Positions 579 to 5,975 of a stretch of 64,000 nt of DNA are shown here, one piece after another. Below the pieces are notes generated by a model. That model saw nothing but the letters and a program-made list of their open reading frames with translations. It made no database searches and was not told where the DNA came from. A program made the translations under genes and the position numbers. Source of the stretch: Amoebidium appalachense (lineage: Eukaryota > Protista > Ichthyosporea); NCBI GenBank assembly GCA_963693365.1, contig CAVNZM010000009.1:6540171-6604170 (forward strand), read 5' to 3'. Position 1 is the first letter of the stretch. Every line of letters starts with the position of its first letter.

Positions 579-3500
579 ATGAATATCAAACCCAAACAGG
601 CGTCAAACTCTGGTGGTGTTGCCAACACTCCCCACATGTCGCTCATTTTCAGCAAGTCAGTTCTTAACCACATAGGTGGAGACATAGGCGCACACGAGCC
701 GGAGAGGGGTGGGTTTCTCTTTGGGGAGGTGAAAGAAACAGAAGCCGGTGTAACCATGAGGTAACGTTACTCCCCCCTCCTCCCCCCTCCCCCCCTCCCC
801 TCCCCCCCCCCAAACACACACTACACACACGCATACAACCCTCTCATAAATTTCTCTGGGCACCGAAATACGCCCCCCCCCCCCCCCCTCCCCCCCCCCC
901 CCCTCCCACCCCCTCCTATCCCAACGCCTCTCCCCTCCCATCGTCTCAAAAAAAGGAGAAAAAATCTAAAAAAAGAAAGGCAAATAAACTGTGATCAATC
1001 ACCACACAGCCCTTATGTCCCCTAAGTGCTGTTTTCGAACCTAAATACATCTAAAATGAGATGTTTGTAGGGAGGGCTTTCCTCTTTGTTTTCCTTTCAC
1101 ACTAAGGCCTCTGAATCATAAGACATGGAGCCTTTTTTCATTTTAAGGTTAACAGAGAAACCAGATTGCGTAGGAAATTTTAAAGCATGGTGGGGGTGAT
1201 TAACCGTGTGCGTGCGTGCGTGCGTGCGTGCGTGCGTGCGTGCGTGCGTGCGTGCGTGCGTGCGTGCGTGCGTGCGTGCGTGCGTGCGTGCGTGCGTGCG
1301 TGCGTGCGTGCGTGCGTGCGTGCGTGCGTGCGTGCGTGCGTGCGTGCGTGCGTGCGTGCGTGCGTGCGTGCGTGCGTGCGTGCGTGCGTGCGTGCGTGCG
1401 TGCGTGCGTGCGTGCGTGCGTGCGTGCGTGCGTGCGTGCGTGCGTGCGTGCGTGCGTGCGTGCGTGCGTGCGTGCGTGCGTGCGTGCGTGCGTGCGTGCG
1501 TGCGTGCGTGCGTGCGTGCGTGCGTGCGTGCGTGCGTGCGTGCGTGCGTGCGTGCGTGCGTGCGTGCGTGCGTGCGTGCGTGCGTGTGTATGTGTGCGTG
1601 TGCATGTGCTCGGGGCAATGAGATGCGATGGCCGTGGCAGTATTGCTGAAGGGAAGGAGGGGGCCGGTTGGTAGTTATATTAACATATCACTTTAATGAA
1701 GTGTCAAATGAGACTAAAGTTTTTACCCAACAAACAAACTAAACTTTAAAATTTGACCCCACAGCGTAAAGTACTTCGTGCATGATCGGCATGCAAGCAC
1801 CACAAGCGTTTCCTACTACCCTTCTTCAGACGCCAGTCGGATACTTCAAGACGCAGAAAACGCAACCAGGCTCACCTTTTTGGGCGTAGTCCACTCGCAC
1901 CCGGGGGGAATGTCATGGTTATCGGGACCAGATCGGGAGGCGATGAGAGATCTGATGGCCAAAAATTCAACGATCGATTATGTCTTTGCACCTATTGTTA
2001 CCCAGGCAAAGTATGCGAGTAAGGCGCCCCCTCAGCACCAGATTCGTTTCAACAATGACGAAAGCGTAATATCACTCTACTACATGGCAAGATCGCAGGG
2101 CCCGAATGGTGAACCAATCAACATCCACGATTGCGCTGTAATCGACGATTACGTTGATGGCGCGATTCCCCATCGGTCAATTTATCAGGCCGCCAGTGAC
2201 GCTCGGCAAATTTCGGCTAAGTATGCGCTGAGGCCTGTTTCCAACCAAGCTGTGAACGACAACACCATCATTTTCACATATGAAATTTCAGACGGAATCA
2301 CGATTGATGTTGTGGTCCAGGCCGGGTACCCTGTCGTCGCTCCCCAAATTTTTGCCACGGTGGGAGTGGAAATGTTCATGCTTCCCACCACCGGCAAAAA
2401 CATAAATCCTGAATTGGAGGGGATGGATCTTGCGTTTGACGCTATCATCCACGTCAACCCGGCTGTCACAACCAACAACGGGTTGTTTCTCGGCTACGGA
2501 CCAATGAAATCACGCCCGCTCACAAGGGACAATCGGATTGGTGGAGACAGTTGGGTGCCCATCCTGACCAACGCGCTGATCGGCGAATTGGATGTCGACC
2601 AACAGACAAATAGCCTTTTTAGGCGCACGGAGGGATGTGTAGATTCGAGCATTCGCTTCAAGCGGGTGGCAATCATTGGCTGTGGGTCAGTAGGCGCTGC
2701 AGCCGCCGATCTATTGGCTCGGTCGGGTGTGGGGGTGATCCGATTGGTCGACGGGGATGTGGTGGAATGTCACAATCTGGCCCGAACCGTTTATACACAC
2801 ACACATGTGGGCCGGGACAAGGTTTTTGCACTTTCGGGTCATTTGCTCGATCTCAACCCGTATGTAACCATCGACCCGCGGGCCGTTGCCGTTCCCAGCG
2901 ACCCGAAAGGAATATTCGAGTACATTTGGGACGTGGACCTGGTGGTTGCATGTACGGACGACCCAGCAGTGCAGGTAAGAAATTTGATCTCCTCCCCCCC
3001 CCCCCCCCCCCCTCTCCCCCCCCCCCCCTCCTCCCCCCCCCCCCCTTTCCCTCCTCCTTTCCCCCTCCCCCCCCCCCCCCCCTCCTTCCCCCCCCCCCCT
3101 CCCCCCCCCCCCCCTCCCCCCTCCCCTCCTCCTCCTCCTCCTCCTCCTCCTCATGCTACACACATACGGGCACACTCACAGCCCCACAAATCTCGTCCCC
3201 AATTTTGTAGGGTCATTGTTTTTTCATTTGGTTTCAAGTCTTAAATAAGGAAACAGAGTTGAAAAACCTATCTCTTCCATTCACCCCCCCCCCCCCCCCC
3301 GCCCCCTCCACCCCTTTAGCCCCGTTGCTACCTTTCACATTACCGCTAAAGTTCCCGCTACAGTCACTCCTTTCAAAACCATTCAAAGCCTTCACCATCT
3401 GCTCAATTTAGCCAATCACTGCCTTTTTCAACCCCCCCCCCCCCCCCCCCCCCCCCCCCCCCCCCAAAAAAAAAAAAAAAAAAAAAAAAGAAGACAGAAA

Positions 3501-5975
3501 GAAAGGAAAGAAGGAAGAAACAGTCAGCCATTGACCCGATCAAATGATCATCTCCCCTTTCCCAGTCATCCGCCCCATCAGTCAAATTCCTCCCCCCCCC
3601 TCTCCCTCCCTCCCCTCCCCCCCCCCCCCCCCCCCTCTCCCCCCCCCCCAAATCACCACCACCACCACCTCCATCACCCCACCCCTTTCCCCCGCCTGTG
3701 CCGCCACACCCCCTCCCCTCCCTCCCTCATACCCAATTGCACAGAAATGAAAAAGCAACTCCCGCCCTCCTACCGAGGCTCTATTGCACCCCCCCCCCCC
3801 CCCCCCCCCCCCCCCCCCTCCCCCCCCCCTCCCCCCCCCCCCCCCCTCCCTTCCCCCCCCCCCCCGCACCCCCCCTCCTTCCCCCCCCCCCCCCCCCCCC
3901 CTCCCCCCCCCCCTCCCCCTCCCCCCCCCCCCCCCCCCCCCCCCCACCTCCCCCCGCCCCTTCCACTCCCCTCCCCCCTCCACTCCCCTTCCTCCTACCG
4001 CTTCCCCCCCTCCCCACCCCCCCCCTCCCCTCCGCCACACCCCACCCACACAGAAATCGATCAGTGCAGCCGCCTACCACCTCAATATACCCACCGTATT
4101 CATGGGTCTCTATGAGGGGGCAGCCGGGGGCGAAATAATTCTCGTTCACCCCATGTTAGAAAACGCGTGCCACGTGTGCGCGACGGGAAGAGGGGGGATT
4201 CGAGACACGCGCACTTGCCGAAGGAAAACTATGGATTGGGGAAATTAGAGGCTGTGTGTGCTCTATCTCCAGATATTACTACGCTGGTTGGTATGGGGGT
4301 TAAGATGTGTGTGGGGGTGTTGATGCTGGAGCAAGTAGGCCAAGGTTACTCGGTAAGTCACGAGGCCACCCTTACATCTAACACTCTCCCGGTCTTTCCA
4401 CGCACAATCATCGTCTGCACGTACACACACACTCTCTCTATTACTATCTCCCCCCCCCCCCCCCCCCCCCGCGCCTCCTTCTCTCTCTCTCTCTCTCTCT
4501 CTCTCTCTCTGTCTCTCATTTTCTGTCACTCTGGCCCTCCCTCCCTCCCCCCCCCCTTCCCCCCCCCCCTGTCTCGATCTACCTGTCTGTCTCGCTCTGT
4601 CTACCCTCCCTCCCCTCCCAGCCCCCCTACTCCCCCCCCCCCCCCCCCCCCCCCCCCCCCCCTTAAAAAAACATAAAAAAAATCTCCTTTCTCTTCTCCC
4701 TGGCCGCAGATTTCCCTCTTCACCCCCCCCCCCCCCCCCCCCACCCCCCCCTCCTCCTCTCCCCCCCCCCCCTCCCCCCCCCCCCCCCCCCCGCACACCA
4801 CATAACCCTAATCCCCCCCCCCCCCCCCCTGGTCACAGGTACACCACATGACCCAATTTCCCAGTTCAACCCCCCTCCCCCTCCCCACCCAGTACACCAC
4901 ATAACCTTTTTCTTATTCCCCCCCCCCCCTCCCCCTCCCCCTCCCCCCAAATCCTCCCTTTCAGTTTCATGTTTAGCAACACACCTAAGTAAAACACCAA
5001 CAAGTTTTATCCCCCATCTCCATACTTCGCAAATTAAAACCCCCCTGACCTATTACTGCTACACCACTTTCCACTTATGAGGGGAATGAAACATCAGGGG
5101 GGGGGGGGGGGGGAGGGGGGAGGGGGGGGCTTGGTGGTGGGAAGGGAGGAAAGGAGCTTGGGGAATGCAGGGGATGGGAGACAAAAGTATTGGCGAAAGT
5201 GATTGAGGGAAAGGAGATAGGGTTTGGGGGGAGGGGGCCCGGGGGGCGGGGAGGGGGGGGGGGGAAGAGAGAAGCTTTGTTAAGAGGGGGGTCTTAATCA
5301 ATGACCAAATTTCAACCACAGGCAGCGAGAGATGTTGTTGGGGTGTTGGAGCGCGGCAAATCGTACGCCAAAGTTTCGCTTTCTTGGGATTTTCTCTACC
5401 ACGAGGACATGGATGGGTTGGGGGGAAATTCGCATGGGGCCCAACAGTATGTGTGGGGGGTTACATGGAAAGACACACCGGAAATTCACGAGGGAAGGAG
5501 GCGGGAGTGCACGGTATGTGGGCCAAAAGAAATCAGGTGCGATCCTACGGAAAAGCCAACCGTTTCGCACGTTCTATTGAGGAATGCTCGGCAAAACCTG
5601 ACAGCCAATGAAACTACACCATCTACGAGCGGTGCACCAGGCGAGATTGCCACATTAGGAGCGACGGATGCCAAAAATGGAAATGATATGGACCAATCAC
5701 ATCGGTCGTCTCTTCTCCCAGCAAGCACAAAAACAGATTCTTACGTCGCCGGCGCACAACCCGCCCAACCAAATTCGCCGGAACACACCACCACCATCCC
5801 AATTACGACCAATCAGATCGGCGATATTGTCAACCAATCGCAACAGCCGGATACGGGGTCGTACGTCCAATCAAAATACGAGACGGTCGAAGAGGAGCCT
5901 CGTCGTCCAAAGAAGTTTCGACCCAAAATCCCTGGGCGGGGGCTTTGGGAAAAATTTAGAAGATTCTGGCCCTGA
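579..5975 (+). CDS. JAB/MPN+ metalloprotease - E2/RWD-like - ThiF/E1-like adenylyltransferase fusion protein (~760-780 aa, 4 exons)
   Basis: Exons are 579 (or ATG 636)-760, 1765-2974, 4054-4352 and 5322-5975, all GT-AG and phase-compatible (2,0,0). JAMM motif: PERGGFLFG (Glu 702-704) plus HSHPGGMSWLSGPD (HxHx7Sx2D, from 1892). YPVVAP motif at 2327. ThiF motifs: LFRR, RVAIIGCGSVG (GxGxxG at 2678), LVDGDVVECHNLAR, DLVVACTD, CHVC (exon 3) and CTVC (exon 4). One extra G is needed in the G6 run at 4192-4197 to keep the frame. Confidence 0.85.
1206..1586. repeat. (GCGT)n tetranucleotide microsatellite, ~95 copies, in intron 1 of the JAB-E1 gene
   Basis: Uninterrupted CGTG array; it produces the spurious ARTH/VRAC ORFs. 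Confidence 0.95.

Follow-up and report, generated by a model that had tools for sequence, protein, structure and literature searches.

In cyclic-oligonucleotide-based antiphage signalling systems (CBASS), an E1, a Cys E2 and a JAB protein act on a C-terminus that is not that of ubiquitin. BubCD, of the Type I Bub systems, lacks a catalytic Cys; according to the accessible part of its description, Y370 is the sole invariant residue of the crossover loop and the substitution Y370F abolishes conjugation (10.1101/2024.11.21.623953). Operon types 6a-6e were set out by Iyer et al. in 2006 (PMC1779556), in the accessible text of which none pairs a non-beta-grasp peptide and a Cys E2 with a JAB-UEV-E1 protein; the accessible parts of PMC7159879, PMC8195603, PMC4327156, 10.1101/2023.09.26.559546 and 10.1101/2022.03.31.486616 describe other systems. 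Here, we analysed a 64-kb stretch of the genome of the ichthyosporean Amoebidium appalachense (contig CAVNZM010000009.1, positions 6,540,171 to 6,604,170; the window), near the start of which lies an intron-containing gene for a JAB-UEV-E1 protein. We lean, if only slightly, towards reading this gene as a JAB-UEV-like-E1 fusion of 781 residues that came from bacteria and is predicted to supply that half of a peptide-tag conjugation pathway which matures and activates the tag, while tag and E2 would each have to be provided separately.

An earlier note on this DNA had described a complete JAMM site, a module with a YPxxAP motif and a complete ThiF/MoeB/E1 adenylation domain, and all three were found. 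The JAB zinc-site residues E42, H104, H106, S114 and D117 are all present, the module carries YPVVAP, and the E1 has every hallmark of the ThiF/MoeB/E1 fold, i.e. the Arg finger R348, GCGSVG, D..NLAR, the Lys, and CxxC pairs at residues 503/506 and 627/630. In Pfam, exon 2 alone matched ThiF with an E-value of 3e-25 and Prok-JAB with an E-value of 1e-4, the latter below cut-off. Profiles of the bacterial family described below, built without the eukaryotic protein, scored it far above chance, with 120 bits for the JAB and 228 bits for the E1; the best solved E1, UBA5, reached 103 bits on the same E1 profile, in agreement with the suggestion that this is not a canonical eukaryotic E1. Conservation was assessed over the 129 homologues of at least 430 aa out of 158. 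The eukaryotic protein retains 23 of the 24 columns that are invariant at 98%, the single miss being W271 in the middle module. In the E1, conserved Cys residues are limited to the four zinc ligands, leaving no catalytic Cys, and the candidate nucleophile is Y524 (Table 1), which from the sequence appears to lie in the crossover loop. Because 23 of 24 invariant residues are kept in a gene with three GT-AG introns, the eukaryotic JAB and E1 have likely retained activity. Moreover, since both active sites are intact, the protein likely still cuts and adenylates one C-terminal motif.

To what family the protein belongs was apparent from searches of bacterial proteins. Exon 2 retrieved 16 proteins, eight of them Prok-JAB plus ThiF proteins of ~600 aa and, where named, from Anaeromyxobacteraceae. 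A profile search of 50% representatives gave 663 matches at 1e-30, and the best 150 of these were examined as family members. Those with a name come from Myxococcota, Actinomycetota, Cyanobacteria, Acidobacteriota, Chloroflexota, Verrucomicrobiota, Electrothrix and, in one case, Bacillota. The eukaryotic protein, read through the frameshift described below, is collinear with the family over residues ~20-650 (best identity 31%, 228 bits), which bears out the prokaryote-type architecture proposed earlier, and it has both family signature motifs, GxYxxAxGGE and the crossover motif xYGxGxL. Three E1 trees comprising the family and other bacterial ThiF/MoeB proteins place the eukaryotic protein with the family and away from the others (support 94, 93 and 91). 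These trees agree with the lateral acquisition that had been suggested, and the three introns with the gain of introns after it. All other named members are bacterial and the family is patchy, which makes acquisition of the gene from bacteria by lateral transfer very probable.

The nearest tree row to the eukaryotic E1 is P0189, a JGI protein on a 1.7-kb contig (support 99 and 89). This pairing is possibly the result of long-branch attraction; in both proteins, the last CxxC is also preceded by a longer spacer (15 and 13 residues, as against 8 in 117 of 128), and P0189 may be a second eukaryotic copy. A search for homologues of 707-2015 aa found none, which is weak evidence, and a plasmid search at 1e-20 gave no match. 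Among viral contigs, a single locus (L142) carries E2 and JAB-UEV-E1 genes.

In bacteria, the JAB-UEV-E1 gene is accompanied by two partners. We built profiles from 19 peptides and 20 E2s of L001-L024, searched 137 loci with them, and scored the 57 loci in which JAB and E1 were present with 1.2 kb visible on each side. A short peptide and an E2 were both found in 55 of these 57, the two misses (L026 and L027) having a divergent peptide that is visible by eye. The 57 include 34 metagenome loci outside the profile training, several of which are near-copies, and both partners are present in all 34; they are found together in none of 37 other ThiF loci (L029-L065). In four of five whole bacterial genomes, the partner profile matched only beside the JAB/E1 gene. 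The peptide has ~60 residues, with a predicted helix and hairpin followed by the conserved end S-x-V-x-x-x-[VT]-F-A. A motif rule cut 68 of the 83 peptide matches, 10 ending at the motif, 36 continuing in a variable tail of 1-15 aa and 22 being fused to another domain; in the remaining 15 the end varies, for example IFA, LFA and TFY. The peptide is present in tandem at L094, fused to E1 in P0092, P0144 and P0180, and fused to JAB in L027. Precursors of ubiquitin-like proteins similarly have conservation that ends at one residue, and occur free, tailed, in tandem and fused. Because the peptide shares both properties with them, it is likely, by analogy, a protein tag that is released by cleavage. 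It had no match in Pfam or NCBIfam and no usable match in a structure-atlas search; kinship to NHL repeats was not accepted, the match to PDB sequences being just a 17-residue hairpin.

The partner E2 is predicted to adopt the UBC fold (predicted local distance difference test, pLDDT, 93), matching CdnG-E2 (8hsb; Z 8.7, root-mean-square deviation (rmsd) 6.9, 123 aligned residues) and Cap2 (Z 8.3, rmsd 3.0, 103 aligned). Among the matches listed, 119 of 120 E2 homologues have H-x7-C and 113 are fused to the peptide. The operon has some variants. At L024, the whole operon occurs twice and inverted (3223-5686 and beyond ~7300), which is either a duplication or an assembly artefact. A second E2-like domain is found near the operon in L016, L021, L112, L113, L115 and L134; in L016, this domain is joined to DUF1232, and inspection by eye showed no His/Cys site in it.

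Taking the sequences, gene neighbourhoods and predicted folds of the bacterial operon together, we infer a pathway of five steps. First, JAB would, fairly probably, cleave the precursor after Phe-Ala, freeing the ~60-residue peptide from its tail or from a fused E2, E1 or JAB. Second, and here our confidence is somewhat higher, an E1 dimer would adenylate the new peptide C-terminus with ATP. Third, the tag would be carried by Y524 as an oxyester or else be passed on directly from the adenylate; the tyrosine route, suggested because of the precedent of BubCD Y370 in the accessible part of its description (10.1101/2024.11.21.623953), is a close call that we place just on the doubtful side. Fourth, the His/Cys E2 would accept the tag as a thioester and transfer it to a target, a step that we consider likely, if a shade less so than the cleavage. 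Finally, JAB would be able to remove the tag again. A thioester assay on the JAB-UEV-E1 protein alone would likely come out negative. In bacteria the peptide and E2 genes usually stand just upstream, where the window shows 578 nt; that tag and E2 were transferred too and lie outside the window, quite possibly just upstream, is the simplest interpretation, and one to which we give a little less than even weight. That the eukaryote has the whole bacterial tagging pathway beside ubiquitin, with a Phe-Ala peptide, maturation by JAB, a Cys-free E1 acting through a Tyr oxyester and a Cys E2, seems to us rather unlikely.

Several observations weigh against reading the gene as the maturing and activating half of such a pathway. 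The 64-kb window contains no peptide or E2 match, and of the 120 peptide-E2 homologues listed, the majority of them nameless, none is named as a eukaryotic protein. A hand-off from Tyr to Cys, i.e. from oxyester to thioester, is without precedent in the literature examined, in the accessible text of which Bub combines Tyr with Ser. The eukaryotic protein deviates from the family at S372A, D408H and R528K, its C-terminal strand region, possibly involved in tag binding, diverges from that of the bacterial family, and its UEV module matches the family profile poorly (16 bits, E-value 0.11); moreover, the many UBC/RWD structural matches to the module are all below Z 8. In the trees, which contain no eukaryotic E1s for comparison, the protein forms a long branch near the base of the family with an unsettled position, and no donor can be named. 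Lastly, sequencing runs X22 and X23, which come from one sample and are only guessed to be RNA, provided no exon cover and no junction, only poly-C/G pieces being matched.

The departures from the family in the E1 and the UEV module could reflect a new substrate. It is conceivable that the gene was transferred alone and was re-aimed at ubiquitin, another ubiquitin-like protein or a host C-terminus, so that the protein would work as a deconjugase or an adenylating enzyme without the bacterial tag. Such re-aiming would be in line with the lack of tag and E2 in the window, the long branch of the E1, the divergence of the UEV module and of the stretch that precedes the second CxxC, and the new 140-aa tail. 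However, the JAB and E1 sites, both of which would read the Phe-Ala end in bacteria, are intact together with Y524, a shift of both sites to Gly-Gly takes two changes, and the search for tag and E2 ended at the window edge, short of the region farther upstream. We regard re-aiming as unlikely, more so than a complete pathway in the eukaryote.

A second alternative concerns the peptide itself, which could be a sulfur carrier or a precursor akin to those of ribosomally synthesized and post-translationally modified peptides, adenylated as by ThiF/MoeB or MccB to yield a small molecule or a modified peptide. The solved E1s that come closest include ThiF, MoeB and MccB, and the E1 lacks a catalytic Cys, as would be expected on this account. 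By contrast, the invariant His/Cys E2 is almost always present, and 10 of 68 peptides have no tail after Phe-Ala. We also scanned 129 neighbours of 36 loci, with at most four per locus, and found no recurring rhodanese, desulfurase, transporter or biosynthetic gene among them (one rhodanese was seen). Altogether, these observations make a carrier or precursor role improbable. The neighbours that do recur are SpoVK/CbbX-like AAA ATPases (seven loci, some of them near-copies), SH3b proteins (four) and HerA-like ATPases (two); CHAT proteases occur at three loci, two of them with iSTAND, and most other neighbours are housekeeping genes. A defence-island context was rejected, PADLOC matches among the neighbours falling for the most part on generic domains of ATPases, helicases or proteases, and the neighbourhoods may at most weakly hint at a role in conflict, including antiviral conflict.

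The features of the eukaryotic gene are collected in Table 1.

Table 1. Features of the JAB-UEV-E1 gene. Coordinates are positions in the 64-kb window, in which the gene lies on the plus strand; exon junctions are predicted.
Feature	Position	Strand	Description
Exon 1	579..760	+	Coding residues 1-61; start of JAB, including catalytic E42 (702-704)
Intron 1	761..1764	+	1004 nt, GTAACG..CACAG; contains a long (TGCG)n microsatellite
Exon 2	1765..2974	+	JAB core, UEV/RWD-like module, N-terminal half of E1 adenylation domain
JAMM zinc site	1892..1933	+	H104-x-H106-x7-S114-x2-D117, conserved in the family
UEV/RWD-like module	2165..2452	+	Residues ~195-290; YPVVAP at 2327-2344; no Cys; predicted to be catalytically inactive
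E1 ATP site	2624..2785	+	R348, GCGSVG (2678-2695), D390, N398, R401
Intron 2	2975..4053	+	1079 nt, GTAAGA..CACAG; rich in poly-C
Exon 3	4054..4352	+	First CxxC (4168-4179), predicted crossover loop
G6 run	4192..4197	+	Assembly one base short; extra G in runs X1 and X3
Y524	4230..4232	+	Invariant tyrosine of the predicted crossover loop, candidate nucleophile; 129/129 homologues
Intron 3	4353..5321	+	969 nt, GTAAGT..CACAG
Exon 4	5322..5975	+	End of E1, second CxxC (5508-5519), low-complexity tail, stop

Of the single spliced reading frame claimed in the earlier note, the four exons and the GT-AG introns stand, and the frame gives 781 aa once an extra G is allowed; as assembled, the joined exons (2345 nt) are closed after residue 528 by a TAG (4246-4248). 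Exon 3 spans two frames and requires one more base somewhere between 4114 and 4248. Four runs were compared at the G6 run; X2 begins at 4193, X22 has no cover there, and both DNA runs that do cover the site, X1 and X3, have an extra G behind 4191. Because both carry this additional G, the stop at 4246 is an assembly error in the G6 run and the real frame has 781 aa. All comparisons were made with the read-through protein, with an X at the frameshift site. A small hidden intron in exon 3 that would bypass the stop was rejected; it would delete the CxxC and is needless given the extra G. The contigs of run X3 match 1700-2686 and 2703-2980 with zero differences. The three junctions are predictions that draw on splice signals, on phase and on the collinear bacterial homologues. 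M20 (636) lines up with the start of the bacterial homologues and may, going by that alignment, be the true start codon instead of the ATG at 579. At the other end, the low-complexity tail (~140 aa, from ~5547) ends in a basic, Trp/Phe-rich stretch and has no Pfam match. The whole window holds 704 homopolymer runs of at least six bases, and further apparent frameshifts in the assembly may be errors like that at 4192.

The gene structure also bears on whether an old transfer has left here just a silent or decaying relic, as the lack of exon cover in X22 and X23 and the frameshift in the assembly might suggest. However, the frameshift is missing from both covering DNA runs, 23 of 24 invariant residues are retained at 30% identity, the three introns are canonical with compatible phases, and X22 and X23 represent one sample of guessed RNA status. 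A relic is thus improbable, to about the same degree as a carrier or precursor role.

The middle module is predicted to fold with a pLDDT of 87, and its best structural matches are UEV, RWD and E2 domains, as a predicted-fold check had been expected to show, although none attains Z 8; the Tsg101 UEV comes first (Z 7.7, rmsd 3.0, 93 aligned), followed by the Vps23 UEV (Z 7.6) and an unrelated capping protein (Z 7.5). A structure-atlas search with the module gave nothing at 0.9, and a profile-profile comparison with the partner E2 indicated no kinship (probability 0.2%). From residue 185 to residue 351 the eukaryotic protein contains no Cys, and across 68 homologous modules no column was found in which Cys, Ser or His is conserved. 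The term E2-like is therefore probably true of the module's predicted shape but not of its catalysis. In 6 of the 57 bacterial loci the gene is split into JAB plus module and module plus E1; because these split operons have a copy on both halves, a docking or scaffold role for the module fits. The model of the earlier note, in which a single polypeptide carries out activation, transfer by way of its own E2-like module and erasure, draws on the UBC-like predicted fold and the YPxxP motif but is very improbable, the module lacking a conserved nucleophile and resembling inactive UEV domains best, the E1 lacking a catalytic Cys, and bacteria retaining a separate Cys E2 alongside, with E2 and tag encoded separately or in separate fusions.

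The window neighbours of the gene are spliced eukaryotic genes, and its exons have a guanine-cytosine fraction of 0.53, against 0.48-0.53 in neighbouring genes. The introns of the gene, together with a run contig that links intron 1 to exon 2, make contamination unlikely. Before the start, at 476-582 (+), lie short upstream open reading frames and a 17-nt tandem duplication; the stop of one of these frames overlaps the ATG at 579. The frame at 476-556, with an HPAVY stretch, was rejected as a tag end on its position-specific scoring matrix score of -8.6, real tags scoring at least 13. The next gene downstream has a Swi5 DNA-repair exon at 8097-8876 (-; Pfam E-value 6e-8). A large spliced gene at 14169-31023 (+) begins like a signal peptide, continues with beta-helix-like repeats and a Cys-rich stretch, and has a membrane segment as well as a Tyr/Ser-Thr kinase domain that is tyrosine-kinase-like; it resembles a receptor tyrosine kinase, and such a gene points to a unicellular holozoan as host. 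Exon pieces at ~37900-58200 (-) we take by eye to be TBCK-like (kinase, TBC, rhodanese), an unconfirmed assignment with no Pfam match for the four pieces scanned. A type II membrane glycosyltransferase, GT92/GT2-like, lies at 61574-63998 (+).

In total, these observations define a compact and widespread bacterial operon of two to three genes, for a peptide tag, a Cys E2 and a JAB-UEV-E1 protein, with a predicted function in conjugation. It would extend tyrosine-type E1s beyond Bub and offers a test case for whether E1-E2 chemistry depends on a beta-grasp fold or on a glycine at the C-terminus. As the copy in a eukaryote suggests, domestication of such modules is possible long after the origin of ubiquitin, giving an orthogonal tag in a ubiquitin-bearing cell. 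If the eukaryote had the whole pathway, the tag would count as a new eukaryotic modifier, obtained by lateral transfer, and the relay as a new hybrid chemistry.

No description of an operon of peptide, Cys E2 and JAB-UEV-E1 was found in the literature examined, and Burroughs 2009 and 2011 or supplements may list the family; no PADLOC or NCBIfam model covers it beyond the ThiF part. Compared with UBA5, MOCS3/Uba4, ATG7 and UBA1-type E1s, the protein shares the ThiF-fold adenylation domain and two CxxC but is fused to JAB and has neither a catalytic Cys nor a rhodanese; the similarity of exon 2 is low (Uba4, 55 bits; UBA5, 35 bits). The earlier note had pointed to Cap2/Cap3 and Bil as the nearest systems, a placement that we revise, since BubCD is closer in plan, yet the family is distinct in sequence. 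CBASS is approached through the partner E2, which in fold is closest to CdnG-E2 (6b) and Cap2 and matches CBASS E2s in the structure atlas at 0.91-0.92. By contrast, the scanned neighbours include no recurring nucleotide cyclase or metallo-beta-lactamase, as in Type II CBASS, and the order is JAB-UEV-E1 instead of the E2-E1(-JAB) of Cap2 and the 6a triple fusions, with a fused UBC-like module that is predicted to be inactive. In Bil (BilABCD), as far as its accessible description goes, JAB likewise trims a short tail off the tag precursor and a Cys E2 works with no E3; however, BilD has an IAD-AAD-CYS arrangement with a catalytic Cys and acts with a beta-grasp ubiquitin-like protein, whereas the present family has a single adenylation domain and neither of these features (10.1101/2023.09.26.559546). 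With Type I Bub (6e), as portrayed in the accessible text, the family shares an N-terminal JAB fused to a homodimer-type E1, the absence of a catalytic Cys, and one invariant crossover Tyr; moreover, BubAB joins tag and E2 as the peptide-E2 fusion does here, where release by JAB would follow. The two differ in that the tag here is a ~60-aa helix-hairpin ending in Phe-Ala and that of Bub a beta-grasp ubiquitin-like protein ending in Gly, and in that the E2 here is of the His/Cys type and that of Bub Ser/His. Also, the present family has the extra UEV-like module and one member in a eukaryote, DUF6527 (BubE) is absent from the scanned neighbours, and BubCD matches at 22 bits, outside the top 60 for the family profile. 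Thus, the family resembles Type I Bub in the way it is predicted to work but stands outside it on account of its tag and its E2.

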